Origin: a virus
Taxonomy: Duplodnaviria > Heunggongvirae > Uroviricota > Caudoviricetes
Virus record (IMG/VR): IMGVR_UViG_2537561713_000005
Reading direction: 5' to 3' (one strand)
DNA length: 14,831 bases
The position numbers and the translations under genes are program-made. Shown here piece after piece: positions 293 to 14,831 of this stretch. The notes beneath the pieces are model-generated. The model was given only the letters and a program-made list of their open reading frames with translations. It had not been told where the DNA came from and did not search any database. The first letter of the stretch is position 1. Every line of letters starts with the position of its first letter.

Positions 293-877
293 TTACTCCG
301 GATATTTAAAAATTACGTAGGTTTGCGACGGGCAGAGTTTGTTAAGCACACACTCGACAACGGTGTCACCCCAGATACGCAGTGCGGAATCACAGGGATC
401 GCCACATGTCATCCAGGTGGAGTTGGTGGTGGCTGGCATGTTGACCTGCCAGTAATACCGCCATTCCGGCGCATTCACCGCGTCAGTACAGGCCGATGAG
501 CAGGTGAAAGTGCTTTTGTCGTATCGCGTGATGGTGGCATCTGGTCTGCCCAGGGCAGCAAGCTGTGCAAGATAAAAATCCTCGTTGATGCCGCCCGCCA
601 GGTTAACCTTCGCATCCAGCCGTTGCTGACGCTGGCGAAGGGTCTGCGTTCCCGCCGGAATACATTCATCCGGCAGACCGCACAGACGCTCCCAGCGGTT
701 TATCAGTTCAGTGGTGGTGCGAGGATCCAGCTCCCGCATCAGGGCATCCGCACGCTGATGAACACGGGTTAATGACGGTGCCGCACCGGCAATCGCCGGA
801 TCGCTGGCTGACCACGCCGGACCGGGCGGCAACAGTGCCGATAACAGGCGGATGTAATCATCGTTTGTCACGTCCAT
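293..877 (-). CDS. Tail protein, Mu gp48 / P2 gpI-like (YmfQ/DUF2313-type)
   Basis: 194-aa ORF between the baseplate J-like gene and the tail fiber; start overlaps the upstream gene by 10 nt. Family assignment from position and recalled similarity. Confidence 0.55.
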
Positions 878-1926
878 GAAATCGTCCCCAGTACCGCCAG
901 TTCGTTTTTCGCAATGGAGATATTGTCCACCGGTGCAAGCAACTGATGGCTGTATTCCCCGTTCGCACCGGAAATCGCCTCACTGATACGCGATACCTTG
1001 AGTTCTCCCTGCGGATAACCATCACGCAGCAGGAACGAACGCAACTCCGCGGTAATGGCAGCCCGTATTTCCGGTGTGTCCGGCGTCACGCGGATATGAA
1101 AATCCACTTTATGCGCCACCGGCCTGAATACATACAAATCAGAGCCTGCCACCGGGGCCAGTGGCTCAATGTGTTGTCTTGCCGCCGTTTCCGTTGATTC
1201 TTCCGGAATGGGATTAATCAGGTCACTGCTGGCAATCATCACACCGACAGTTCCCGTTCCCATCCAGTGACGGTATGTCCATGCGCGGGTAATGCCGGGC
1301 ACTTCTTTAGCCCAGACAACATAGTCCCCGTCAGCCCCGCCCTGAGGCGTCCAGTAATACCGCTCAATGACGCGGGCGCGCCACGTTTCCAGATCTTCAG
1401 TATCGAATCCGCCAGTCAGGGTATCTGCAACACCGGAAGACGGCAGACCATTCACCGGCGTGACCAGGATTAATGCCGTACCGTCGTCAGCGTTACCGAC
1501 CGCGCCTGCACTTGAGCAGGCGATCGGCACGCGCAGGACACCACCGGAGCTGGTTGCATCAGCAGTTGCCGTGTACTGAACCAGGTCATCGCGCTGAATC
1601 ACGCTCCCGGCGGTCACCTTCAGGCCATCGCTGACACCTTCCCAGCGCATATACCCGCTGGCAGCCGTGGCCCCCTTGCGCGGACACCGTTTCATCGCAG
1701 CATGTCGCGCCAGCCAGGACTCATCGCACAGGTCAGGCAGCATGTTCATTGCCAGATAATCGATGTAACCGTAAACCGTATGCAGCGCCGCCGCATACAC
1801 CTTTGCCCGCACGTCTTCATCCATGCGCCGGAGCGTGTCGCTGACGTCCAGCCTGGCGAATAAATCGTTACGGAGCATACTGATATTTTCTGCCAGCGTC
1901 GGGCGCTGAAATTCACTGTCCGCCAT
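868..1926 (-). CDS. Baseplate J-like protein (Mu gp47 family)
   Basis: 352-aa ORF in Mu-syntenic position after the gp46-like gene; size and position typical of baseplate wedge J proteins. Confidence 0.7.
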
Positions 1927-2341
1927 GCGTTATCGCACTCCACAGATCATCAAAAGAAATCATTACCGGTCCGTCACGACGCCAGAGGGTGATACTGTTA
2001 CCCAGCTCATTAATCCCGGTGCGGCGGATATCCAGATCAATACGGGACACCACGCCGTCATCAATCATCCATTGCAGGCATTCGCGGATATACCCCCTTA
2101 CTGTCTGCACCAGCTGATTGGTCAGTTTGCTGCGCTGAAGCAGCCACAGTCGTGAGCCGTAACGGTCATTCTGTACCGCAGGCCAGGTATCCCCCCACCA
2201 TCCCATCGGGACGTCGGCGTTGTCATCAGGCTCCGCCCGCCGCCAGGTAAACAGGGAAATCACCACGGCGCGGGTCAGCGGATCCAGCGGTGCGCTGGCG
2301 CAGGTGCGTTTACCGTTCACCGTCAGCCACAGTTCCATCAT
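1913..2341 (-). CDS. Baseplate protein, Mu gp46-like
   Basis: 142-aa ORF between the V-like and J-like genes; start overlaps the upstream stop (ATGA). Confidence 0.5.
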   Translation of the reverse strand: MMELWLTVNGKRTCASAPLDPLTRAVVISLFTWRRAEPDDNADVPMGWWGDTWPAVQNDRYGSRLWLLQRSKLTNQLVQTVRGYIRECLQWMIDDGVVSRIDLDIRRTGINELGNSITLWRRDGPVMISFDDLWSAITHGGQ

Positions 2342-2886
2342 GCCTCCATCGCTTTATCCGGTTTGTCGGTGTTACTGCCCTGACCGTTCTCTCTGTGACG
2401 ATGCCCGTTATAGGCAAGCCGCATCGCTGACATGGTAGTGCCGCTGGAGTCGCACAGGTCTTTCACCTGTCCTGTCACTTCCAGGTCCATTTCAAAACGT
2501 GCTTTAGGTGAATTGCGAAACGTGATCGTTTTACCTGCACCGTCCACCACGATCCCCTCCCGGGTCAGCGTCACAGACTGCCCCTGATCGTCATAGACAG
2601 CCACCTCACCCGTCTGCAACCCTTTCAGGCGGTAGCGCCGGTCCGACACCGTAACAACCACCGCATGAGAACGGTCGCCATCCGGAAACAACACCACCGC
2701 TTCCGCGCCGCTGTTTGCCCTTGCGGTAAAACCGTAGGGTTCAAGATGTTCAACCCCGGCTTTGGGTTCACCGGCAATCAGGGACACATCCACGGTCTGA
2801 CATTTCGTGGCGGCACTGATGCTTTTCACCACTGCCCGCGCAATCAGGCCGAGAAGTTGTCGCTGCATGGCTTCAATCGTCCTCAT
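2338..2886 (-). CDS. Baseplate assembly protein V / spike (Mu gp45-like)
   Basis: 182-aa ORF; ATGA start/stop overlap with the hub gene; position matches Mu gp45. Confidence 0.6.
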   Translation of the reverse strand: MRTIEAMQRQLLGLIARAVVKSISAATKCQTVDVSLIAGEPKAGVEHLEPYGFTARANSGAEAVVLFPDGDRSHAVVVTVSDRRYRLKGLQTGEVAVYDDQGQSVTLTREGIVVDGAGKTITFRNSPKARFEMDLEVTGQVKDLCDSSGTTMSAMRLAYNGHRHRENGQGSNTDKPDKAMEA

Positions 2887-3965
2887 CAGAACGGGTCCTC
2901 CTGTACTCTGGCTTTTTTCTTTTTCCGCGCGCCGGGGGCTTCGGGTTCAGGCAGATAAGCATCAGGCGGGCCGACACGGATTTCCGTCAGGGTGCCGTTC
3001 TGGTCCTGAGTAAACGTGACTTCCGAGACAAGCAGTTCGGTATTGTCGAAACCACAGACTGGATCGAAGACAATCACCCGCTGGTTGGGCTGCCACAGCG
3101 TACCGTTACCCTGTCGCCAGCCCTGCACCACATAGGTGGTTTCATCCGTCCGCGCCGCCCGTTGTCGGGCTTCAAAGTCAGCACGCGCAATACAGCCTGC
3201 CCCCGTGGCCTGCCCTGTCTGCCTGATATACATCGGACGGTAACGGGCAATAAATGCGTCCTCTGTGCGGGCCCGCAGCGCGGTGGTGGTGACCTCACCG
3301 AAATCATCGTCGTTTCCGGCACGCTGCCCCGCCACCTGGTAAACAGAAAACCGCTCCCGGATACTCTTCTCCGTATCACAGGAAAGGATGTTTTCCCCAA
3401 GTACCAGCGCGGTATGTGCCCGCGTTGAGCCAATACCGCCAATCACCAGCCTGCCGTGCGGATCGTCGTAAGCCAGCGCCTGCTGCTGACCGAGTATTTT
3501 GTTGATAACCTCAATCACCGTTTCACCGTGATCAGGCTGAACATCAGGAATAACACCCGACGGCGCACCGCTGTTCACCACCTCAATGCCGAAAGGCGCA
3601 GCAAGCGCCTGCGCAATCTGCACCAGCGAGCGTCCGTTAAACTGTGTCGGTTCGGCTGCACAGTCAATCAGGTCAGCCGTCAGACTACGTCCGGCAATAC
3701 CGGTGCTGACCGAACGGGCATCGTAACGAACGGGAGTCGCCTCCACCCAGCCGGTGATCACCAGCTCATCACCAATCAGCACTTCCACTTTTGAACCGTT
3801 TTTAATGCGCGGCTGAAGCGTGGTGATACCCTCATCTCCCGGCCACTGGCGAGTGATCTCCACACTGAAATCCCGCGCCAGCCGTTCAATACCGGCACCG
3901 ATGCGCACCGATGTCCAGCCATTCCACTCCCGGCCATTTACCCGTAGCGTGACATTGTCGTTCAT
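2886..3965 (-). CDS. Baseplate hub protein (Mu gpP / late control D-like)
   Basis: 359-aa ORF following the N-like gene with overlapping stop/start; synteny with Mu N-P. Confidence 0.6.
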   Translation of the reverse strand: MNDNVTLRVNGREWNGWTSVRIGAGIERLARDFSVEITRQWPGDEGITTLQPRIKNGSKVEVLIGDELVITGWVEATPVRYDARSVSTGIAGRSLTADLIDCAAEPTQFNGRSLVQIAQALAAPFGIEVVNSGAPSGVIPDVQPDHGETVIEVINKILGQQQALAYDDPHGRLVIGGIGSTRAHTALVLGENILSCDTEKSIRERFSVYQVAGQRAGNDDDFGEVTTTALRARTEDAFIARYRPMYIRQTGQATGAGCIARADFEARQRAARTDETTYVVQGWRQGNGTLWQPNQRVIVFDPVCGFDNTELLVSEVTFTQDQNGTLTEIRVGPPDAYLPEPEAPGARKKKKARVQEDPF

Positions 3966-5305
3966 TGCACTGGCACCTTCAGAGGGATCACCGGCACAAA
4001 GCCGGGATGCGTAATGGCATTACGCCGGATAATGTCCGCGTCACGCGCCGCGTTATCAAACCAGGTCGCCGCCAGCACCAGCGCGGGTAAAACCTCATCC
4101 GGCGTGCGCTGAATGATCCGTGCAGACTGTTCAAGGCGCGTGTTGATATCCGCATTCAGATCTGCTTTCACCCGGCGCAGCGCCAGAAACAGCGCATCAC
4201 TGGTTGTACGGGACAACTCCTTATCAATTGCCGTATTCAGTGTGTCGCGAATGTCGGTCAGTTCTTCCCACGTTGGCAGGTCAACCGTGTTTTTCACCGC
4301 CGGTGCATTGTTCAGTGCCGGATGCGTGACAGAAGGCCAGCCGGTGCTCTGCGCGGGTGTTGTTGACTGCCCTACTGTGGCATTCTGCATCACCGCGGAA
4401 GTTGTGGGCGCAGGCAATCGTGTGACGGCATACGCCGCTTCGCTGATTGCGGTCGTACGAAGGGTGCTGGCAACCACGTTACGCTGCTGCGTCGCCGTGG
4501 CGGTAGTTTTACTGTCCGTTTTCCAGACGCCGCGCGGTTGCAGATCGCTGCCGAGGCTGACACCGGAAAGCGTTTTGATCATGGTGACCAGGTCGCTGGC
4601 GTTACCATAAAGGCGTTTCCCGGTACGCCACATTTTCTGCACCTGCTCAACGAAATTTTTGCCTGACGATGGTGGCGGCAGAAGTACCGAGATATCCCCC
4701 TGCAACAGCCTGGCGGCATCCGATACGGCAGAATCCACCACTTTCATCGCATCAGAAACATACCCAAGCATTGTGCTGGCATTACCGACGACGTCGTTCT
4801 GCACAAAATCTGCCACGCCATCGATACTGAAACCACTGAAGCTGTCACTGATGCAGTCATCCAGTGCAGAACAGGATGACATCAGCGTCTGCGCCGTCGC
4901 CGCACCTGAAGTGGGGTAAGAGAGTTCTCCCGCTTCGACAAACTTCAGGTCAAAGCGGACAATACGCCCTTCACTCTTCGATGTGCTGACCCGAACTTCC
5001 CCGTCAACACAGACTTTCAGCTCACCGTAAGTCGGATGGACAAGCGTGCCGGGACCGGGTTTATTCAGCGCGTCAATCAGGCGATCGCGCTGGTCAAAGC
5101 AGTCATCTCCCACCACATAAGCTGTGATGGACGGGCGGAAAGTGATTTTCCCCAGGTCTTCGGTATAGGGTTTGTCGCGGTTCGGGTATTCGTGCGTTTC
5201 CACACGACGACCGGTTCCCGCACTTTCTTCTTCAACCTTAAACGGCACACCGCGAAATGACGCGTCCTGAAGTCTGTCTTTCCACGTCATATAAACTCCG
5301 TACAT
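3962..5305 (-). CDS. DNA circularization protein N-like (Mu gp43 family)
   Basis: 447-aa ORF directly after the tape measure gene. Alternative start at 5290 (MTWKDRLQDASFRGVPF...) has a better SD (GGAG, 5-nt spacer). Confidence 0.6.
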   Translation of the reverse strand: MYGVYMTWKDRLQDASFRGVPFKVEEESAGTGRRVETHEYPNRDKPYTEDLGKITFRPSITAYVVGDDCFDQRDRLIDALNKPGPGTLVHPTYGELKVCVDGEVRVSTSKSEGRIVRFDLKFVEAGELSYPTSGAATAQTLMSSCSALDDCISDSFSGFSIDGVADFVQNDVVGNASTMLGYVSDAMKVVDSAVSDAARLLQGDISVLLPPPSSGKNFVEQVQKMWRTGKRLYGNASDLVTMIKTLSGVSLGSDLQPRGVWKTDSKTTATATQQRNVVASTLRTTAISEAAYAVTRLPAPTTSAVMQNATVGQSTTPAQSTGWPSVTHPALNNAPAVKNTVDLPTWEELTDIRDTLNTAIDKELSRTTSDALFLALRRVKADLNADINTRLEQSARIIQRTPDEVLPALVLAATWFDNAARDADIIRRNAITHPGFVPVIPLKVPVQ

Positions 5306-5326
5306 AAAAATCCCACCGGAGTGGGA
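5306..5326 (-). terminator. Small stem-loop plus T5 run between tape measure and N genes (weak attenuator candidate)
   Basis: Minus strand reads GTCCCAC-TCCG-GTGGGA followed by TTTTT, ending right at ATG 5305. 6-bp stem, short U tract. Confidence 0.2.
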
Positions 5327-5349
5327 CTCATTAACAGATTAATTTTTCA

Positions 5350-7185
5350 TTACCTGCCAAAGCGCGTATAGCCAACATCATGGCTGACATCAAAACCGCT
5401 GGATCGCGTTTCCATAACCCGCATACCCGGAGGCGAATTCACAAAAGAGACCTTGATCTCACCATCAACTTTTGGCGCAGAAGCTTTGTTAATCATGAAG
5501 GGATTCGGGCCTGTGGCACCGGAGGCGTTGTTTGACTGAGCCGGATCTACCGCCTGATAAGGTGTGTATCCCCGTGCCGGTATTCCCGTCCCATAAGCAT
5601 CATAAGCACCCGCGCCCCACTGCGCAGAGTTAATGGCATCGACCGTGTCACCGGAACTGTCGGTAAACCACTCAATAATTGGCTTCAGTTTGTCCCACAT
5701 ATCCTGAAACCACTTAACAACCGGTCCCCAGTTATTGATTACCATCCCCAGCGGCGACCAGGCAAAAACCTTCTTCAGAAGTTCCCAGCCAGCCTCAAAA
5801 TAAGGACCAATGGTTTCCCAGAGCTTCTTGAAATAAGGTCCGACAACATCCCAGTTAGTGATAATTAATCCCGCAGCCAGGGCTATCGCCGTCGCAATCA
5901 TTCCAATCGGCGTCATCGACATGATCCTGCTGACAATACTGATGGCACCGCCAACGCCCATCAATCCCAGTTTCAGAATCGCAAGACCGGCAGCAAGCCC
6001 GACGACGCCGCGAATAACCCGGGGATTTTCATCCGCAAACTTCGTGAATTTTTCCCCTAACTCCCCCAGCCATTGCGTGATATTTTTGGCGTCACCAGAA
6101 AATGCGCCGCCAATAGCCGCAAGGCCGTTAGTTGCGGTCCCCGTCATTGCCTCCCACAGGTTGGACAGCGTACCAAGCTGGGCCTGAACACGTTTATTCA
6201 GGCTGGCCTGTTTATTCATCTTCTGCTGGATCTGATCGTAGCCATCCTTTCCTTTATCGATTAGTGCATTGACCACCTGAAGGGTTTCGGCATCATCACC
6301 AAATATTGCCTTAAGTACACCTGTTCGCTTAACGTCGGTCAGTTTTCGCAGCTTTGCCAGTTGCCTGAACATGTTATCAAGACCGCCAAAACTTCCTTTG
6401 CCGTCAGTAAAATCGAGCTGTACCCCGAGTTTCTGGCGGGCCATGATTTTATTGACGTCCCTGATTTTCTTAACGCTTAATCCGGACTGGATAACTTTTC
6501 GCAGGGCGTTACCTGCCGACTCCCCGTTCATCCCCATCTGATCCATCATGACGCTGATGGGGGCAAGGCTCTGTGCAGCCTGAAGACCGTCCTTGTTCAC
6601 CATCTTCAGAACAGAGCTGGTTTTAGTGAAGAAGGACAACATGTTGGTATCGTCAACACCCAGATAAAACGCCTTCTGGATAGTGTCGAACAGCCCCATC
6701 ATGTCTTCTGACGCCGTTCCGGTAGCATCCTGCATCTTTGCAGCAAACTCAGCAGCCGCTTCCGGTGTTTTTTTCAGTTGTACCGCAAGATAAGCTGTCG
6801 CTTTACCCACACCGCCAAGAATGTTTTCTGCCGGGATCCCCTGACGCACCAGCATCTGCATCATGTTCTGGAAATCAGCCGTTGTACCGGGTAGCTGGTT
6901 ACCCAGGCCAATAGCCAGTTTATTGATGTCCTGAAAGCTCTTTCCAACCTCGCCGTTCGCATCCATCATGGCGACTTTCAGCCCGGTGGCGGCGTTTTCC
7001 TGATCGGCATAAGATTTCAGGGAAAGCGTCAGACCCGCTGCCAGTCCGCCACCAAGCGCCAGCCCACCCTGTGACGCTTCTTCCGCCTGGCGTTTAAATC
7101 CCCGGATTTTCTTTTGCATTTTCGACAGCGCGGGAGAAAGCCTGTCGACACCGGTGATCAACGCCTTAAGCTCAAATTCCGCCAT
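5350..7185 (-). CDS. Tail tape measure protein
   Basis: 611-aa ORF; Ala/Gly/Gln-rich helical N-terminal half and hydrophobic glycine-rich central segment (…GVVGLAAGLAILKLGLMGVGGAISIV…); sits after the frameshifted chaperone pair. Confidence 0.8.
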   Translation of the reverse strand: MAEFELKALITGVDRLSPALSKMQKKIRGFKRQAEEASQGGLALGGGLAAGLTLSLKSYADQENAATGLKVAMMDANGEVGKSFQDINKLAIGLGNQLPGTTADFQNMMQMLVRQGIPAENILGGVGKATAYLAVQLKKTPEAAAEFAAKMQDATGTASEDMMGLFDTIQKAFYLGVDDTNMLSFFTKTSSVLKMVNKDGLQAAQSLAPISVMMDQMGMNGESAGNALRKVIQSGLSVKKIRDVNKIMARQKLGVQLDFTDGKGSFGGLDNMFRQLAKLRKLTDVKRTGVLKAIFGDDAETLQVVNALIDKGKDGYDQIQQKMNKQASLNKRVQAQLGTLSNLWEAMTGTATNGLAAIGGAFSGDAKNITQWLGELGEKFTKFADENPRVIRGVVGLAAGLAILKLGLMGVGGAISIVSRIMSMTPIGMIATAIALAAGLIITNWDVVGPYFKKLWETIGPYFEAGWELLKKVFAWSPLGMVINNWGPVVKWFQDMWDKLKPIIEWFTDSSGDTVDAINSAQWGAGAYDAYGTGIPARGYTPYQAVDPAQSNNASGATGPNPFMINKASAPKVDGEIKVSFVNSPPGMRVMETRSSGFDVSHDVGYTRFGR

Positions 7186-7596
7186 GTGTGCGTTTCTCCT
7201 GCTCTATCCTGTTTGCCTGACTGACCAGCAAGGGAATTTCACTGATCGGCATATTCAGCAATTCGAAAGGATTAATGCGCCAGTAGCTGGCGCAGTCAAA
7301 GAAGCGATCAGTGAGGTATTCAGCCGTCAGGCCTGGAGGAAAAAACCAGCCACAAGCCACGCCGCTGCATTCAGGTCTGCCGGAGACATCTGGTCGACAG
7401 AGCTTTGCGGCACTTTCGCCAGCCGCACAATGTATTTCGACACCACATGCGCCAGAAGTCTGACTGACTCATCCTGATTCATCTGGTAGGGATACCCCAG
7501 CTCGCGGACATCCTTCCCGGTGGGTTCATCAAACTCCAGTACGGAGAGTGTCTCGCCATGAGCAGTAATCGGTTTCTTTAACTCAAGCTCTTTCAT
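7172..7596 (-). CDS. Tail assembly chaperone, long product by -1 programmed frameshift
   Basis: The 62-aa ORF (7172..7360) is in the -1 frame relative to the 89-aa ORF and overlaps its last 34 nt; after a slip on TTTTTTC the next codons are CCT CCA GGC (…FFPPGLTAEY…). The extension ends 11 nt inside the tape measure start. Confidence 0.5.
7327..7596 (-). CDS. Tail assembly chaperone (short, in-frame product)
   Basis: 89-aa ORF between tube and tape measure genes; ends at a T_TTT_TTC slippery heptamer. Confidence 0.6.
   Translation of the reverse strand: MKELELKKPITAHGETLSVLEFDEPTGKDVRELGYPYQMNQDESVRLLAHVVSKYIVRLAKVPQSSVDQMSPADLNAAAWLVAGFFLQA
7339..7345 (-). other. Slippery heptanucleotide T_TTT_TTC (-1 programmed ribosomal frameshift site)
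   Basis: Minus-strand GCT GGT TTT TTC CTC in the zero frame; X_XXY_YYZ pattern placed exactly at the frame overlap. Confidence 0.5.
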
Positions 7597-7952
7597 TACT
7601 GGTAATCCCCTTCTTCACCGTGGAACTCAAGATCAACCGTGCCTTCTTCGGCATTATGGTTCGCTTCGCCGTGCAGCCAGGCAGACGACAGTACATAGAC
7701 CTGACCGTTCGCCAGCTCGGCAGTGATGGTCATCTCATCAGACGAGGTGATTTTGCTTACCGGAAAATTCTTCGGCACCTTGAAGGTCCCTTTGACATAA
7801 GGCGCACGGTGAGTTTCCTTGCGGTCCACTGAACCGTCCAGGCCGATGATGTCATCGTTAACCGTTTTGTTCATGGGCACCTCAATGCCGCCGGTCAGCG
7901 ATAGCTGCTGACCGTCAATTTTGAAATAACAGGTTCCCCCGATACGGGCCAT
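7596..7952 (-). CDS. Tail tube protein (Mu gpM-like)
   Basis: 118-aa ORF immediately after the sheath gene, with stop/start overlap on both sides. Confidence 0.7.
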   Translation of the reverse strand: MARIGGTCYFKIDGQQLSLTGGIEVPMNKTVNDDIIGLDGSVDRKETHRAPYVKGTFKVPKNFPVSKITSSDEMTITAELANGQVYVLSSAWLHGEANHNAEEGTVDLEFHGEEGDYQ

Positions 7953-9448
7953 TATGCAGACTCCTCTGAATACTGAAGACGGAACTGATTAACCACGGCA
8001 AAGACACGCAGCTGGTTAACATAGTCAGGCGGGAACAGCGTGTTCAGGCGGTTCGGATCGCTGGCATCACGCTCCACAACCAGGTACTGCTTAAACAGTT
8101 CGTAGTTTTCCACGATCCCCGCACGCTCAAGCTGACGGTAGGTTGCCAGCAGTTCCCCTTTGATCACCGCCGGGGTGACAATCGCCTGACCGGGACCAAA
8201 GCGGGTACCGTCACTGGCAAGCTTGTGACGCCCGTACTTACTGGTAATGACGGATTTCAGTTTGCGCAGTACATACGCGCTGGTATGCAGCGTCTCACTG
8301 TCGAGGTAACTGTTATCCGCAACCCCGTAAGCGTTTTTCCTGTACGTGGTGACATCACGCTGAATGCGTAGTACCCCGCTTTCGACATACGCCGTTGCCA
8401 CGCCATGAGACAGCAGGGTCTGTTGTTCGGTCATCGTGAACCGTTTCCCCTTCGGCGCAGGCAGCATACCCACCAGCTCACCGGTCTGCGTGGGACGTGC
8501 CGGATCGTTGCGGATAAACACCGCTGCGCGGGCGGTACGGCTTGCCGCCAGCTCGTCGGCAGGCGTCTGGGTCTCTTTTTCGTACCCCGCCAGGGTAATG
8601 TGCTGCTGGTTAAACTGGTCACCTGCGGTCACCAGTTCTGACAGCGTGCCGATCTTTGCCGTATACACATGACCATACAGCTGACGCGCATAGCTCCAGC
8701 GACCGCTGGTATCGTTCATCTCGGTCACCAGCGTGTTAACGGAGGCCGTGTCGTTGAACGGCAGGCCGATATAATCAAACGGCTCATCCGCCATTGCAGC
8801 CACCGCGCCGGTGAGAACCGGAGCACCCGTTCCGGCGGTACCCGTCGCCACGGCAATCTGTACGCCCGCTGGCAGCACTTCGCCCCCACCAAAGCCGTAG
8901 TAATTGAGGCTGACAGGAATTTCATTCCCACAAAGCCCCTTATGACGCGCGGTCAGTGTGACCACGCCTGCCAAAGATGAAGCCGTAAACGGCAGGGTCG
9001 GAACGGCATTGATGGCATCCTGGATACTGCTGGCAATCATCGTGACGTTATCGCCGTTAGTCACCGGTGCCTGCACGCGGGTACGTCCTACATACACATT
9101 CACCGTGCCGGTTTCGGTTGCCGCCCCGGTCACCGTCAGCGTAACTGTTGCCGCCGCACCTGTGGATTCAGGAACGGCAATCACATACAGCTCGCCAAAC
9201 GGGTCAGTCTGGCGATAAGCCTCGACCATACGCGCCAGCTGACTTCCCGCACCACAAATCTGGCGTGCATAGTCTGCCGACGACATCAGTACCAGACTGT
9301 TGGCAACAATCTCTGCACCGTTATTGGCATGACCAATCAGCAGCGATGCTCCGCTGTCCTGTGCAGTATTCGCCGCCTGGTTATCCATTTCCGCATAAAA
9401 CAACGGAACCAGCGTATTCGACGGAATGGTGTTAAAGCTTATCGTCAT
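7952..9448 (-). CDS. Contractile tail sheath protein (Mu gpL-like)
   Basis: 498-aa ORF followed by the tube gene; size and order as in Mu and P2. Confidence 0.8.
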   Translation of the reverse strand: MTISFNTIPSNTLVPLFYAEMDNQAANTAQDSGASLLIGHANNGAEIVANSLVLMSSADYARQICGAGSQLARMVEAYRQTDPFGELYVIAVPESTGAAATVTLTVTGAATETGTVNVYVGRTRVQAPVTNGDNVTMIASSIQDAINAVPTLPFTASSLAGVVTLTARHKGLCGNEIPVSLNYYGFGGGEVLPAGVQIAVATGTAGTGAPVLTGAVAAMADEPFDYIGLPFNDTASVNTLVTEMNDTSGRWSYARQLYGHVYTAKIGTLSELVTAGDQFNQQHITLAGYEKETQTPADELAASRTARAAVFIRNDPARPTQTGELVGMLPAPKGKRFTMTEQQTLLSHGVATAYVESGVLRIQRDVTTYRKNAYGVADNSYLDSETLHTSAYVLRKLKSVITSKYGRHKLASDGTRFGPGQAIVTPAVIKGELLATYRQLERAGIVENYELFKQYLVVERDASDPNRLNTLFPPDYVNQLRVFAVVNQFRLQYSEESA

Positions 9449-9602
9449 CGGTGTTCACCTTTTTATTCACGCGCCGGATATCACCCGCTGCTTCACGGCG
9501 CAGCCAGTAGTTGTTCTCGTCAACATTTCGCCCTTCGGCGGGCAAAAGGTCGCCGCGGGCAGGGTCAGGCACTGACCGCCCTTTAACAGGTTTGACAAAC
9601 AT
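9432..9602 (-). CDS. Small hypothetical protein (56 aa) between gp37-like and sheath genes
   Basis: Not in the supplied track (below its length cutoff). My translation: MFVKPVKGRSVPDPARGDLLPAEGRNVDENNYWLRREAAGDIRRVNKKVNTDDDKL. ATG at 9602 with GAGG 6 nt upstream; stop overlaps the sheath start codon. Confidence 0.35.
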   Translation of the reverse strand: MFVKPVKGRSVPDPARGDLLPAEGRNVDENNYWLRREAAGDIRRVNKKVNTDDDKL

Positions 9603-9610
9603 GAGGATCC

Positions 9611-10171
9611 TCAGGAAGGAAGGGTTATTTCGGTGTGATGTTCGATATCGCCGTCAGGCCCGTTACCGGGCTCGAGATAATCAACATCAATCGCCAGCGT
9701 TTGCAGTTCATCCAGACTGTTCAGATCATCCTGCTGGCGGGTATCGTCTTCAGTCAGCTCGCTGATGACCGAAAAATCGAACTGATAAATCAGCTCATGA
9801 CGATTCAGATCCAGCAGCGTGCCGCCGTCATAGGTAATCGGGTTACCGCACGCTTCCGGGTTCCAGCCCAGCAAGGCCTTAAAGAGCATCTGCCGGACAT
9901 CGTCCACCACATCATACGAAGCAAACTGACCGAGCTCATCACGCCCGTTACTCAGTATGACAACCACGGAGAAGCCCTCTTTCAGCTCCTGCCAGTAGTC
10001 GGTCTGGCTTTTGTTTTCTCCCGGAGAGTCATCACCCGGTACCACATACGCCGCCGGGAGTCTCAGCTTTCCGACCTCCGGCAGATTTTTGAACTGTGCC
10101 GCGCCTGCCACCCGGTTTTCAAAATACGGGCAGCGGGCACGCAGCGCAGCAATAACAGGCGTCAGTTTCAT
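9611..10171 (-). CDS. Neck / tail-proximal virion protein, Mu gp37-like
   Basis: 186-aa acidic ORF; ATGA overlap with the upstream gene; synteny. Confidence 0.45.
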   Translation of the reverse strand: MKLTPVIAALRARCPYFENRVAGAAQFKNLPEVGKLRLPAAYVVPGDDSPGENKSQTDYWQELKEGFSVVVILSNGRDELGQFASYDVVDDVRQMLFKALLGWNPEACGNPITYDGGTLLDLNRHELIYQFDFSVISELTEDDTRQQDDLNSLDELQTLAIDVDYLEPGNGPDGDIEHHTEITLPS

Positions 10172-10674
10172 CTGCGTCGTCGCTCAGGCTTCAGTGATTT
10201 ACGTAATTCTCGCGCCAGAAAATAGCGTGTCCAGCTGCGGTTCTTTTCAAGCGTTTCCACCATAAAGTTATTACGTGGAGCCAGCCGCCAGCCGCTGCCA
10301 CCGGATGCACCACGATGATGACTACGACGACGTTTTGCTCCTCCCCGGACACCAAAAAACAGAAACGCCGGATAGAAGTCACCAGAGATCATCCGGTTCC
10401 CCTTCCCGTTGCGCTGGTTAGGGGCAATGCGTGTCATAAAACCGGCTCGCTTTTTACTGGCTCTCGGCACCATGTAACCAATCGAACGAGCCAGGCGTCC
10501 GGTCTGATAACCGGGGTTTTCACCCGGTGCCGACCGCGCACGGCGCATCACCAGCCGACGGGCATCACGCATATGACGCTGCCCAATCGTGACAAACGCC
10601 CGCCGGACACGGGCGCGGTTAAAGCGCATCTCGGCGGGCTGCTGAACATCAACGTGAAAAAAGGGAGTCGCCAT
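10168..10674 (-). CDS. HK97 gp10-like head-tail joining / tail completion protein (very Arg-rich)
   Basis: 168-aa basic ORF containing YQTGRLARSIGYMV, resembling the TGrLrnSI motif I recall for the HK97 gp10 family; overlaps the upstream gene by 26 nt. Confidence 0.45.
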   Translation of the reverse strand: MATPFFHVDVQQPAEMRFNRARVRRAFVTIGQRHMRDARRLVMRRARSAPGENPGYQTGRLARSIGYMVPRASKKRAGFMTRIAPNQRNGKGNRMISGDFYPAFLFFGVRGGAKRRRSHHRGASGGSGWRLAPRNNFMVETLEKNRSWTRYFLARELRKSLKPERRRR

Positions 10675-11059
10675 TGCTGCCTCCGTGACTCTGCGTAAAT
10701 TCGCCCAGTTCCGTACACTCCAGCAGCAGAAAGCGCCGCGCCCCGTTCAGATCGCGCTGACGTTTCACCCGGTACACACTGTCATCACAGACCACCTCAT
10801 AATCAGCAGTGATCCCGCGGCGGTAGCGAATGGTGATGTAATGGGTGATGGCGTCCCCGGTCTGCGCGGTTTCCTGCCAGGTGGTGGCACTGGTCTGGAT
10901 AACCTTCGCCCATGCCCGGAACGCAACCGGGTATTGAGGCTCCACGCCAAAGTTATCCGCGGGCATATCCACCCGCTGGCGGATCAGGACGCGTTTATTC
11001 AGTTCGCCGGGGTCCGGCAGTATGTAGGTTGCGCTGGTCTGCGCCTGACGAATTTTCAT
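10649..11059 (-). CDS. Head-tail adaptor / head closure protein
   Basis: 136-aa ORF directly after the gp6-like connector gene (ATGA overlap); size and position typical. Confidence 0.5.
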   Translation of the reverse strand: MKIRQAQTSATYILPDPGELNKRVLIRQRVDMPADNFGVEPQYPVAFRAWAKVIQTSATTWQETAQTGDAITHYITIRYRRGITADYEVVCDDSVYRVKRQRDLNGARRFLLLECTELGEFTQSHGGSNGDSLFSR

Positions 11060-11379
11060 AGTGGTATAAGGCGATAAGGAGCAACCAACCAGTTAAAACT
11101 CATTGGCAACTCCATTTTCTCAACGTCTGTAACCGTTGAGCGGTTTTCGTAGAAATGGCTGACAAGTAGCAGAAGTGCCAGCTTCACATCATCAGATATC
11201 ACAAGCCCATCAGGATCATCCGCAGGCCTGTCATCTGCGGTTGCATACAACTTACGGTTAAGGAAGTTTTCCGTACGACTCTGAGCGGCCTTACCAAGCA
11301 GTTCAAGCAACTCATCTTCATCAGAGAAATCATCATCCAGACGGAGCTGAAGCTTAATCTCTTCCATTTTTAACAGCAT
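11056..11379 (-). CDS. gp6-like head-tail connector protein
   Basis: Track ORF extends to 11424, but ATG at 11379 has AGGAGG 4 nt upstream (MLLKMEEIKLQLRLDDDFSDEDELLELL…); the upstream extension runs through stem-loops. Confidence 0.55.
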   Translation of the reverse strand: MLLKMEEIKLQLRLDDDFSDEDELLELLGKAAQSRTENFLNRKLYATADDRPADDPDGLVISDDVKLALLLLVSHFYENRSTVTDVEKMELPMSFNWLVAPYRLIPL

Positions 11380-11389
11380 AAAACCTCCT

Positions 11390-11431
11390 GTGCCCGCCAG
11401 AACGCGGGCACAAAAAAACCGCATTACGCGG
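11390..11431 (-). terminator. Tandem stem-loops with U7 tract downstream of the major capsid gene (partial terminator/attenuator candidate)
   Basis: Minus strand after the capsid stop: GCCGC-GTAAT-GCGGT hairpin, TTTTTTT, then a perfect 8-bp stem GTGCCCGC-gttctg-GCGGGCAC, directly followed by AGGAGG and the ATG of the next gene. Confidence 0.35.
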
Positions 11432-11457: not shown

Positions 11458-12687
11458 TCAACCACCAACGCTACCTTTCCCCACCAGCGCTTTAATGGCA
11501 GAGGTGTCTTCCAGGATACAGTCAAAACGATGGAAGGCCAGAAAACCGGTCTGATCATATTCCGCGTAACGCTCAACCAGACGTTTAAGAATCATGTATC
11601 GCACACGACGGATAATGAAGCGATCAAAGTCACCACAGAACATGAATTTTTTACCCGCCCCGATATCATCAATTTCCTGATCAATGACATACGGTACATT
11701 CAACACTGAAGCAGGTGCCACACCAACAATATCCGGCAACCATAAAGGGCGTCCCTGACCGTCTTCCATCTCACTGATCAGTTTCAGCGTATTATCGTTA
11801 AACGCCAGGCGGAATTTCGGTCCGCGACGATATGCAGGATCAATGCTGTGTTTCAGAGCCAGAATTTCCTGCCACTTCACCGTATTTGCCGCGGCAGTCT
11901 GTGTTGTGCCGGTCACAGATGCGACCAGCCCTTTGGGTTGTTTAGGCGTACCAGCACCAGTTCCCTGAATCAGATAACGGGCTTCACCACGACCAATACG
12001 TTCAGCAATGCGACGGGCAAGATAAGCTTCCATATCGATCGCACTGTCCTGCAGCAACTCATTAGACACACGAATTATTTTCGATGTCATTTTGAGCGCC
12101 CCAAGGCTTCCCATACCGAAATCGGTGTCTTCTTCACCGGCTTCTTCATTTTCGCCCAGCAGAACACCAACTTCGGAAGTACCATCAGCTGTTGCCCACT
12201 CCATAGTGCGACCGTCAGAAGTGGTAAGAATCTGCGCCACACTGGCGATGCCACCGTAGGATTTCATCTTCTCAACAACTTTCGCCAGGAATGTTTCTGG
12301 TACGGTATATCCGCCCTTTTCATCCTGAGCTACGCCCTGGGCACGAAGTTCACGCAACGCCTTTCGTTCTTCTGATGTCAGCTCACTGGCACCGTGACGC
12401 ATCCACTTATCAAAAACCTGAGCTCGTTTCTCATCCTGTTGTGGATTGTTTTCCGGATCAAGATTCTGACGCTGCTCTTCCTCATTGCTTTCAATGTACG
12501 CCTGATCCTGACGACGCAGTTCTTCTTCGCGTGCAATTCGTTCATCAAGCGCTTCCAGTTCGGATTTTGCTTTGTTCCACTCAGTGCGCTGCTCTTCCGT
12601 CCATGCGTTATCACCAATTTTTTCATTCAGGGCGCGCATGTCAGTTGCGATAGTATTACGTTTCTGTTTCAGTTCATGCAGTTTCAT
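11458..12687 (-). CDS. Major capsid protein, HK97 family, with N-terminal coiled-coil delta (scaffold) domain
   Basis: 409 aa; the first ~100 residues are charged and helical (…EEQRTEWNKAKSELEALDERIAREEELRRQDQ…), followed by a capsid-like body; AAGGAA SD 5 nt before ATG; sits right after the prohead protease gene. Confidence 0.85.
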   Translation of the reverse strand: MKLHELKQKRNTIATDMRALNEKIGDNAWTEEQRTEWNKAKSELEALDERIAREEELRRQDQAYIESNEEEQRQNLDPENNPQQDEKRAQVFDKWMRHGASELTSEERKALRELRAQGVAQDEKGGYTVPETFLAKVVEKMKSYGGIASVAQILTTSDGRTMEWATADGTSEVGVLLGENEEAGEEDTDFGMGSLGALKMTSKIIRVSNELLQDSAIDMEAYLARRIAERIGRGEARYLIQGTGAGTPKQPKGLVASVTGTTQTAAANTVKWQEILALKHSIDPAYRRGPKFRLAFNDNTLKLISEMEDGQGRPLWLPDIVGVAPASVLNVPYVIDQEIDDIGAGKKFMFCGDFDRFIIRRVRYMILKRLVERYAEYDQTGFLAFHRFDCILEDTSAIKALVGKGSVGG

Positions 12688-12697
12688 GATGTTTCCT

Positions 12698-13300
12698 TTA
12701 CGCGTTAAGAAGGGTCAGGACGCGTTCACGCGCCATACGTTGATTAATGGCTTTCTGTAGCGCGCCGCTGTTGCGCGCCTCCTGCCATGCTTTCATGGAG
12801 CGAACAGCCGAGTCAGCCTCCTGATAGGCAGGATATGTCACAGGACTGACATCCAGCAGACGGGAAAAGCGGGTTATCTCGCGAATAACAACCCCGTCCT
12901 CATCCTGATACCACTCCTCGCCGTCACGGGCGACACGGAAAGCAAAAGATGACTGGTTAATATCTCCACGTTGCATCGGGGCCAGCACCAGATCACGAAT
13001 GGTCTGTGTCTCCGGAGCCTGGATGTCATAGCGCAATCCGCGCTCATCAACTGAAAGATTCAGCGTGCCTGCTGCACTACGCCCAAGAATAAAATTAGGA
13101 TCGTGGTTAAACAGTGCGCGTACATCATCACCAAGCACATCGTCAAAAGCGCCGGGCCGGATGATTTCGCGGAATGAACCAAATATCAGCTCAGAACGAC
13201 AGTCAAACACCGATCCATAACCGATAATGTGCGCAGGGTTATCGTCATGCCGCTCAGCACGCACCTCACCGCTGTAACAACGGATTTCACGGTCATTCAT
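12698..13300 (-). CDS. Prohead maturation protease, HK97 family
   Basis: Track ORF runs to 13357; I prefer ATG 13300 (MNDREIRCYSGEV…), which overlaps the portal stop as ATGAATGA and has GAGGG upstream. Body motifs (…HIIGYGSVFDCRSELIFGSFREIIRPGAFDDVL…NHDPNFILGRS…) are protease-like. Confidence 0.8.
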   Translation of the reverse strand: MNDREIRCYSGEVRAERHDDNPAHIIGYGSVFDCRSELIFGSFREIIRPGAFDDVLGDDVRALFNHDPNFILGRSAAGTLNLSVDERGLRYDIQAPETQTIRDLVLAPMQRGDINQSSFAFRVARDGEEWYQDEDGVVIREITRFSRLLDVSPVTYPAYQEADSAVRSMKAWQEARNSGALQKAINQRMARERVLTLLNA

Positions 13301-13901
13301 TGGTTTTTCCCTCATCATTTTTTGGGGGCTTAAAATCTCCTGCCGGGTTAGCAGCATTCACGCTTACCAGCATCTCATCCAGCCCTTCAACCGGATTCAT
13401 ATCCTCGAATGCGCGGGCTTCATTACGGCTCATCCATCCATCGGTAATAGCGAAGTGATAGAATTGCGCGCGCTCCTGCGGAGTTCCGCGTAAAAGCCCC
13501 GTCAGATTGAACCTAACGTAATACCCGGCGGCTAACTCAGCGCGGGTAAACAAGCGACGGTTAAGCTCCTGCTCCCAGTTCGTTACCCACGGCATCATCG
13601 TGTAGCGGACAAACTGAATCGCCTGCGCAGAAATATTGGAGAAGGTGGCTTTTTCGAGGTCATTAATCATGTGCGCAGGAATATTGAAAATACCGGCAAT
13701 CATTGAACGGTTCAGTTTCATCATGTCAATGATCTGAGCGTCAACTGGCGACACAGTCAGTGCCTTGTAATCCAGTCGGGACTGGCCTGGCTTGTATTGC
13801 TTCCAGCCCTCGCTTTTGTGGCTTTCGCAATAACCTGACGGGTCAGTCGTGGTATGGCGGCAGCCGCGAACTCGGCAGGCTTTTGGGGTTCGTGGTGGCA
13901 T
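13293..13901 (-). pseudogene. Chimeric ORF: HNH-endonuclease-like N-terminus (~45 aa) joined in frame to the portal C-terminal ~165 aa; likely deletion remnant
   Basis: ATG 13901 with GGAG 5 nt upstream; begins MPPRTPKACRVRGCRHTTTDPSGYCESH (Cx4GC…GYCxxH zinc-ribbon start of terminase-associated phage HNH endonucleases), then …GLLRGTPQERAQFYHFAITDGWMSRNEARAFEDMNPVEG…, typical of the HK97-family portal C-terminus. Far too short for a portal. Confidence 0.6.
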
Positions 13902-14020
13902 ATGTACTCCAATGAAGAAGCTACCGACATAGCCTCCTCCATTCGTCGTGAAACTATTTTCATCTACCCAGTAATGAATTCTTTGAAGAGTTGTAATCAA
14001 TACAACTCGCTAATGGAGAG

Positions 14021-14044
14021 GCTTGTCTCACACGTGAGACAAGC
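14021..14044. promoter_or_regulatory. Perfect inverted repeat GCTTGTCTCA-CACG-TGAGACAAGC with T-rich 3' flank
   Basis: 10-11 bp arms centred on CACGTG, followed on the plus strand by TTCCTGTTTGATTT; lies in the divergent intergenic region. Confidence 0.3.
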
Positions 14045-14123
14045 TTCCTGTTTGATTTACTGGACACTATAGAAGGACAGAATGCCTTCCTCACTCGAAT
14101 CACATCAATTAAGGAGGTTCAAC

Positions 14124-14246
14124 ATGTTTCATTCCACAAGTCATCAGGCTGTAATTATGGCAGCATCAGTTTGTGCCACAGACCTTTTCCGCTTCACTTT
14201 GAGCCTGATTCATTTCTACCTGACCGGCTCGCCTCTATCTTTTTAA
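14124..14246 (+). CDS. Hypothetical small protein (40 aa), hydrophobic
   Basis: Not in the track (under length cutoff). AAGGAGG 6 nt upstream of ATG 14124. My translation: MFHSTSHQAVIMAASVCATDLFRFTLSLIHFYLTGSPLSF; stop TAA at 14244..14246. Confidence 0.4.
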   Translation: MFHSTSHQAVIMAASVCATDLFRFTLSLIHFYLTGSPLSF

Positions 14247-14426
14247 TCCCCGCTTTATCCAAATTGCATTGCCAGAATGCCGACAACAGACTGACATTCA
14301 AATCCTGACTACCTCCAATAGTCTGACCGTACACCTATATAGTTTTAATTTTCATCAATCCATTTAACTATCGTTTAATTGTTGTCACATAGGATTCTGC
14401 CGTTTTTAACAATGCAGGATAATAAG

Positions 14427-14720
14427 ATGAAAAAAATGTTATTTTCTGCCGCTCTGGCAATGCTTATTACAGGATGTGCTCAACAGACGTTTACTGTTGG
14501 AAACAAACCGACAGCAGTAACACCAAAGGAAACCATCACCCATCATTTCTTCGTTTCGGGAATTGGACAGGAGAAAACTGTTGATGCAGCCAAAATTTGT
14601 GGCGGCGCAGAAAATGTGGTTAAAACAGAAACCCAGCAAACATTCGTAAATGGATTGCTCGGTTTTATTACTTTAGGCATTTATACTCCGCTGGAAGCGC
14701 GGGTGTATTGCTCACAATAA
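14427..14720 (+). CDS. bor: Bor family outer-membrane lipoprotein (lambda Bor / Iss-like)
   Basis: 97 aa from ATG 14427 (AGGA 7 nt upstream): MKKMLFSAALAMLITGCAQQTFTV…EARVYCSQ, with signal peptide and lipobox LITG|C; near-identical to lambda Bor as I recall it. The track start at 14379 is an upstream in-frame extension. Confidence 0.9.
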   Translation: MKKMLFSAALAMLITGCAQQTFTVGNKPTAVTPKETITHHFFVSGIGQEKTVDAAKICGGAENVVKTETQQTFVNGLLGFITLGIYTPLEARVYCSQ

Positions 14721-14730
14721 TTGCATGAGT

Positions 14731-14748
14731 TGCCCATCGATATGGGCA
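14731..14748. terminator. Hairpin between the convergent bor and Rz 3' ends
   Basis: TGCCCAT-cgat-ATGGGCA, 7-bp stem, in the 31-nt gap between the two stop codons; no clear U tract on either side. Confidence 0.25.
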
Positions 14749-14751
14749 GCG

Positions 14752-14831
14752 CTATCTGCACTGCTCATTAATATACTTCTGGGTTCCTTCCAGTTGTTTT
14801 TGCATAGTGATCAGCCTCTCTCTGAGGGTGA
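14752..14831 (-). CDS. Rz: Rz-like i-spanin, C-terminal 25 codons (partial, starts beyond window end)
   Basis: Minus-strand frame reads …TLRERLITMQKQLEGTQKYINEQCR then TAG at 14754..14752, matching the lambda Rz C-terminus as I recall it; convergent with bor as in lambda. Confidence 0.7.
   Translation of the reverse strand, partial: TLRERLITMQKQLEGTQKYINEQCR

Follow-up and report, generated by a model that had tools for sequence, protein, structure and literature searches.

Phages of the HK97 type package their DNA with a machinery in which the HNH endonuclease gp74 works together with terminase and portal. In phage SfV (NC_003444), the genes concerned are arranged as HNH (orf53), genome ends, small terminase (terS), large terminase (terL), portal, protease and capsid, and the genes of a Mu-like tail follow. 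In cos phages the ends of a linear record by convention mark the cos site, and the position of the SfV genome ends is presumed here to be such a site. The same arrangement is present in an SfV-like prophage of Escherichia coli O157:H7 strain FRIK2455 (locus L002), which consists of an HNH gene (116 aa) adjoining a P27-family terS, terL, an ORF of 53 aa, a portal of 408 aa, the protease and the capsid, with 97.9% DNA identity to SfV from terS to capsid. The portal of this intact sibling matches positions 2-321 of the Pfam profile PF04860 as well as the solved HK97 portal 8cez (E 2.4e-38). Its HNH protein, with the HNH domain at aa 66-112, matches the solved phage HNH endonuclease 5h0m, including the N-terminal Cys-rich segment (E 1e-11).

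The second system to which our locus can be compared is the excision of IS629 in enterohemorrhagic E. coli O157 (Kusumoto et al. 2011, as presented in PMC9943667; Calvo et al. 2023). Excision is promoted there by IEE together with the transposase, and IEE possesses microhomology-mediated end-joining activity (PMC9943667). IEE-dependent excision brings adjacent deletions of a few nucleotides to more than 40 kb, and IEE and IS629 co-occur in almost all O157 (PMC9943667). Scars of a similar kind were described for the loss of ISApl1 from the mcr-1 transposon Tn6330: they lie at microhomologies of 2-4 bp, some of which reach into the end of the IS, and the deleted length is close to that of the IS (bioRxiv 10.1101/2023.06.07.543989).

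The DNA analysed here, which we call the window, is a stretch of 14,831 nt. It represents the late part of a temperate prophage of E. coli O157:H7 that is SfV-like and whose DNA-packaging module has been deleted. An HK97-like head and a Mu-like contractile tail, encoded in the order of SfV and with high identity to it, place the window among SfV-like prophages. Downstream of the affected gene, all on the minus strand, are an HK97-family prohead protease of 200 aa (Peptidase_S78; 12698..13300), an HK97-type major capsid protein of 409 aa (11458..12687), which equals SfV orf5 in length, and the head-tail connectors, Mu-like contractile tail and baseplate from adaptor to Gp48 (293..11424), with the lengths of SfV orf6-orf20. 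Altogether 17 structural ORFs of head and tail have the lengths of SfV orf4-orf20. The protease and the capsid are intact, as the preliminary description of the locus had stated. The protease gene shares its first 8 nt with the end of the affected gene. The gene order of HNH, small terminase, large terminase, portal, protease and capsid, from which that description had argued, is the one seen in both the FRIK2455 prophage and SfV.

Several other features of the window deserve a brief mention. Upstream of the HNH start, a lipoprotein gene of the iss/bor type (14427..14720, plus strand) marks the end of the lysis cassette. It is separated from the HNH start by about 0.5 kb of non-coding DNA (13902..14426); SfV has neither this gene nor such a spacer between its lysis genes and HNH, and its Rz1-HNH gap is 26 nt. 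The spacer contains a hairpin at 14018..14047, a palindrome with a 13-bp stem (GAGGCTTGTCTCAC..GTGAGACAAGCTTC) and a T-rich tail on the plus strand. The hairpin has no match in Rfam, whose scan gave nothing at the gathering threshold, and a scan of 13200-14831 found no sigma-70-like promoter. Between the tail tube and tape-measure genes, two overlapping minus-strand ORFs of 89 aa and 62 aa occupy 7172..7596; this interval is the usual site of a tail-assembly-chaperone pair with programmed frameshift. Finally, an Arg-rich ORF of 168 aa without a Pfam family (10168..10674, minus strand) overlaps the head-closure gene by 26 nt. Its length is conserved with SfV orf8, which is annotated as tail completion or Neck1 protein.

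The affected gene is a chimeric ORF of 202 aa on the minus strand (13293..13901), with ATG at 13901, stop codon at 13293-13295 and the sequence GGAG 5 nt 5´ of the ATG. Codons 1-42 (13776..13901) derive from HNH and encode its N-terminal Cys/His-rich segment; they are identical at the protein level to the start of WP_001135207.1, the 116-aa HNH endonuclease encoded in the intact sibling prophage. From residue 43 to residue 202, the chimera has exactly the sequence of residues 249-408 of WP_000923141.1, the 408-aa portal of the same prophage. This in-frame portal part (13293..13774, with its stop codon) covers about 40% of an HK97-family portal, counted from the C-terminus. The two parts meet on the minus strand at ...CCAGTCCCGAC/TGGATTACAAGG (window 13775/13774), or KPGQSR/LDYKAL in the protein, and the string spanning the junction reads ...CCCGACTGGATTAC... 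The base C13775 can be attributed to either the HNH or the portal side. Codon 43, a CTG for Leu at 13773..13775, is at the same time the deletion junction and the probable scar of IS629 excision discussed below. Since both parts show 100% DNA identity to two separate genes, the chimeric pattern is not a product of chance.

The preliminary description had recognized an HNH N-terminus with its own Shine-Dalgarno sequence and the end of an HK97-family portal. The origin of both parts holds; their sizes have to be corrected from about 45 to 42 residues and from about 165 to 160 residues. The breakpoint expected near nt 13800 was sought in the right vicinity, 25 nt away from its exact position. The possibility that the N-terminus belongs to a normal portal can be set aside, as portals of this family start with VLLDALFRSK..., which is unrelated to MPPRTPKAC of the chimera.

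Neither of the parental domains is left complete. Residues 41-167 of the chimera match only positions 200-321 of the 321 positions of the Phage_portal profile (PF04860, E 1.7e-45), portal residues 1-248 being deleted. Pfam finds no HNH domain (PF01844) in the chimera, whose 42 HNH-derived residues end before the catalytic beta-beta-alpha metal domain. Because the defining domains of both parent families are missing, the chimera is best treated as a pseudogene-like remnant, which would probably act neither as portal nor as nuclease.

Compared with FRIK2455, the window lacks 3,466 bp (L002 6627-10092), beginning with HNH codon 43 and ending with portal codon 248, in agreement with the deletion of 3-4 kb between HNH and mid-portal that had been suggested earlier. 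The deleted DNA comprised the catalytic domain of HNH, the SfV genome-end site, terS, terL, the 53-aa ORF and portal residues 1-248, or in terms of Pfam domains HNH (aa 66-112), Terminase_4, TerL_ATPase, TerL_nuclease and Phage_portal profile positions 2-199. Projected onto L002, the two ends of the linear SfV record meet at 6908/6909, which lies between HNH and terS and inside the deleted interval; the SfIV record opens at the same place. Counted in SfV genes, the window has lost orf1 and orf2, the 3´ part of orf53 and the first 60% of orf3, together with the genome-end site. Neither a terminase gene nor a second portal was found in the window, in 10 kb upstream of it on the source contig, or anywhere in the 20.6 kb of that contig which were read.

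The complete module of cos, terS, terL and portal that a viable SfV-like phage possesses is therefore absent. While in the intact sibling the HNH gene adjoins terS as in other HK97-type packaging systems, in the window the system is destroyed and its survivors are 42 aa of HNH and 160 aa of portal. The deletion took both terminase genes (terS and terL), the catalytic domain of HNH and 60% of the portal, along with the position of the SfV genome ends, and the remaining gene content strongly implies that the prophage would be able neither to cut and package its DNA nor to build a portal vertex. These results confirm the original observation, and its interpretation proves to be essentially right. 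What it had not foreseen was IS629 as the probable cause, and the probable nature of the junction as an IS-excision scar.

The origin of the deletion can be approached through one complete genome, that of O157:H7 strain N8B7-2 (NZ_CP038333.1, L001). At the corresponding place, RefSeq annotates a partial HNH, a transposase of IS3-family IS1203/IS629 and a partial portal. The flanks of this region align to the window with 100% identity over 1,059 bp and 99.985% identity over 6,690 bp, with an overlap of 3 bp between the two alignments. N8B7-2 has 1,313 bp more than the window, namely a complete IS629 of 1,310 bp (TGAACCGCCCC...GGGGCGGTTCA, with ends TGAACC...GGTTCA) and the triplet ATC. The element is flanked by ...CCCGAC at the HNH side and by ATCTGGATTAC... 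at the portal side. Its flanking triplets are GAC and ATC, so it is not bordered by the 3-bp target-site duplication expected from simple insertion of IS629 or required for its precise excision. The HNH breakpoint is common to N8B7-2 and the window, and the portal breakpoints lie 3 bp apart (ATC/TGG versus C/TGG). The window junction falls into a 3-bp microhomology, CTG, whose left copy is composed of the last flank base and TG of the left end of IS629.

The triplet ATC is decisive for the order of events. It is native portal sequence (GATCTGG in the FRIK2455 locus), which is kept by N8B7-2 and missing from the window. Therefore, the IS-bearing allele represents the older state, and the N8B7-2 allele is not derivable from the window by insertion. 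We considered the window as an empty site of the N8B7-2 insertion, since the 3-bp overlap of BLAST alignments mimicked a duplication, and rejected this when the IS ends showed flanks GAC and ATC. Over 7.7 kb, the only substitution between the two alleles is at window position 11929 in the capsid gene (GGG versus GGA, a synonymous Gly codon). The window agrees there with FRIK2455, which makes the SNP private to N8B7-2; the strain therefore stands beside the window's lineage as a sister and is not the literal ancestor of the window. Outside the window, a poly-A tract in the intergenic region downstream of the antiterminator gene (L004, around 6080) is one base longer in the window contig and in N8B7-2 than in FRIK2455. 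We did not accept this difference as phylogenetic evidence, because it is too error-prone and might reflect a shared derived state as well as a homopolymer sequencing error.

Another IS629 (L003 7631..8940) is found in the HNH gene of strain MA11 and 18 others, 19 complete genomes in all, whose packaging module is otherwise intact. It is inserted 4-7 bp downstream of the position corresponding to window 13775, in opposite orientation and with a clean CCA duplication. Having the opposite orientation and neither flank in common with the N8B7-2 allele, it was discarded as a precursor and, as no simple route leads from one allele to the other, is treated as an independent event. Two insertions within 7 bp suggest that this part of the HNH gene is a local hot spot of IS629.

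We suggest that the window arose in two steps, a model that we consider quite probable: a deletion associated with IS629 would have produced an allele of the N8B7-2 type, and later excision of the IS would have left a packaging-dead prophage with a remnant ORF. In the first step, IS629 would have inserted in the region and caused the 3.47-kb deletion, either through loss of the DNA next to the IS or because two IS629 copies in direct orientation recombined. In the second step, IS629 would have been excised by a microhomology-mediated pathway dependent on transposase and IEE. This excision might have removed IS629 and 3 bp between two CTG triplets and, by chance, restored the reading frame. A point against the model is that a search of 5,426 complete genomes for a precursor in which a simply inserted IS629 sits at one or the other breakpoint found none.

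The scar has the features expected from IEE-type excision, namely an IS-bearing sibling allele, a removed length of 1,313 bp against 1,310 bp of the IS, and the CTG microhomology; on the other hand, a 3-bp microhomology is expected by chance at about 5% of random joins (calculated). Judged from these features, the excision presumably depended on IEE. The window shares with the described IS629 excision in O157 the identity of the element and the host, the joint at short microhomology, the deleted length near that of the IS, and the larger adjacent deletion at the site. It differs in that the lost IS was without target-site duplication, and hence the event was not a textbook precise excision. 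The 1,313-bp loss at CTG likewise fits the description of ISApl1 scars (bioRxiv 10.1101/2023.06.07.543989), even in the overlap of the scar with TG of the IS629 left end. The systems are otherwise distinct, ISApl1 being an IS30-family element of a plasmid transposon and IS629 an IS3-family element residing here in a prophage.

Excision and deletion might also have happened at once. If IS629 had been present in HNH after ...CCCGAC in a prophage whose packaging module was still complete, one IEE-dependent excision could have taken the IS together with 3.47 kb, the N8B7-2 allele being a separate product. The process is reported to delete neighbouring DNA over lengths between a few nt and more than 40 kb (PMC9943667), and the HNH breakpoint is common to window and N8B7-2. 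However, the portal ends of two independent deletions would then have to fall no more than 3 bp apart in a gene of 1.2 kb, which is very unlikely, and the required precursor is again seen in 0 of 5,426 complete genomes. We therefore regard this course of events as improbable. Even less can be said for an illegitimate deletion independent of any IS, with IS629 inserted at the finished junction later in N8B7-2. The two breakpoints are loosely alike (GCCAGTCCCGA versus GCCAGCCGA), and IS629 did insert repeatedly into this HNH gene. But the likeness is at chance level (p ~0.11): homeologous recombination between the breakpoint sequences was rejected because their best local score, 7, is reached by 11% of random position pairs. 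Moreover, IS629 of N8B7-2 is without the 3-bp duplication, unlike the MA11-type insertion with its clean CCA, and no insertion can recreate the native portal ATC which N8B7-2 keeps. Such an origin is contradicted by the junction sequences and highly unlikely.

The least probable of all, in our opinion, is an assembly artefact, in which short-read assemblers skipped the repeated IS629 and the true locus is of the N8B7-2 type. The allele is indeed known from draft or short-read assemblies only and from 0 of 5,426 complete genomes. Nevertheless, the join shares just 3 bp and drops three bases that do not belong to the IS, a result which a k-mer assembler cannot yield; the identical junction also appears in assemblies that are independent of each other and come from different pipelines (NCBI and Logan), and the protein has a UniParc entry as well. 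A different question is whether the locus has kept some function. The chimera might be expressed as part of the late operon and, as a portal fragment with dominant-negative action, could keep superinfecting SfV-like phages from assembling their heads. Alternatively, the packaging-dead prophage might be maintained as a tailocin-like source of free Mu-like contractile tails. Such proposals could lean on the in-frame fusion, which retains the ribosome-binding site and start codon of HNH, and on the SfV lengths of all 17 of 17 downstream structural ORFs. Yet chance alone would put one join in three in frame. The allele is also rare (4 contigs) and 0-1 SNP away from its siblings, and in so young an allele the intact genes cannot be read as a sign of selection. 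We give this possibility as little credit as the IS-independent deletion. The two-step model, with an IS629-bearing intermediate, remains the explanation we prefer.

The allele without IS is a natural one. Contig JABEKN010000020.1 of GCA_016770855.1 matches the window at 100% identity over 11.5 kb, and the exact 202-aa protein has the accession MBL5722551.1, under the name "phage portal protein [Escherichia coli O157:H7]". NCBI and Logan assemblies together contain the exact chimera protein in 4 contigs, and the two loci that were retrieved, from GCA_016770855.1 and from the Logan assembly of SRR24374504, share the junction letter for letter over 34 nt. The IS-less junction was found in 0 of 5,426 complete E. 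coli genomes. In N8B7-2 the counterparts of the chimera are flagged as pseudogenes, whereas the IS-less join of the window gives one continuous ORF. The name given to it by NCBI mislabels the chimera, which contains 40% of a portal behind an N-terminus derived from HNH.

The distribution of the prophage seems to be restricted by lineage within O157:H7. SfV-like prophage was reported in 87% of strains with the tir 255 A allele, which are bovine-biased, versus 7% of T-allele strains (PMC10758439). Strain Sakai (L006, NC_002695 295-335 kb, comprising thrW and Sp1/Sp2) shows no similarity to the regulatory-to-baseplate region of the prophage at E 1e-30, in line with the report that the prophage is confined for the most part to strains with tir 255 A (PMC10758439).

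Taken together, the locus is a case of ordinary IS-driven prophage decay, which is known biology and has little general importance. Defective prophages and IS629-driven deletions in O157:H7 are well documented. What is new is that N8B7-2 carries this very deletion with a 1,310-bp IS629 at its junction and without target-site duplication. In practice, the annotation "phage portal protein" would make prophage-completeness tools overrate the element. At least four states of the locus occur in the bovine-biased lineage with the SfV-like prophage (intact, IS629 in HNH, IS629 with deletion, and IS-less scar), and may thus serve as a marker for strain typing. Finally, N8B7-2 and the window would form a natural before-and-after pair that documents the scar of an IS629 excision where target-site duplication was lacking. 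Such a pair bears on the question of whether excision proceeds via the duplication or via any microhomology nearby.
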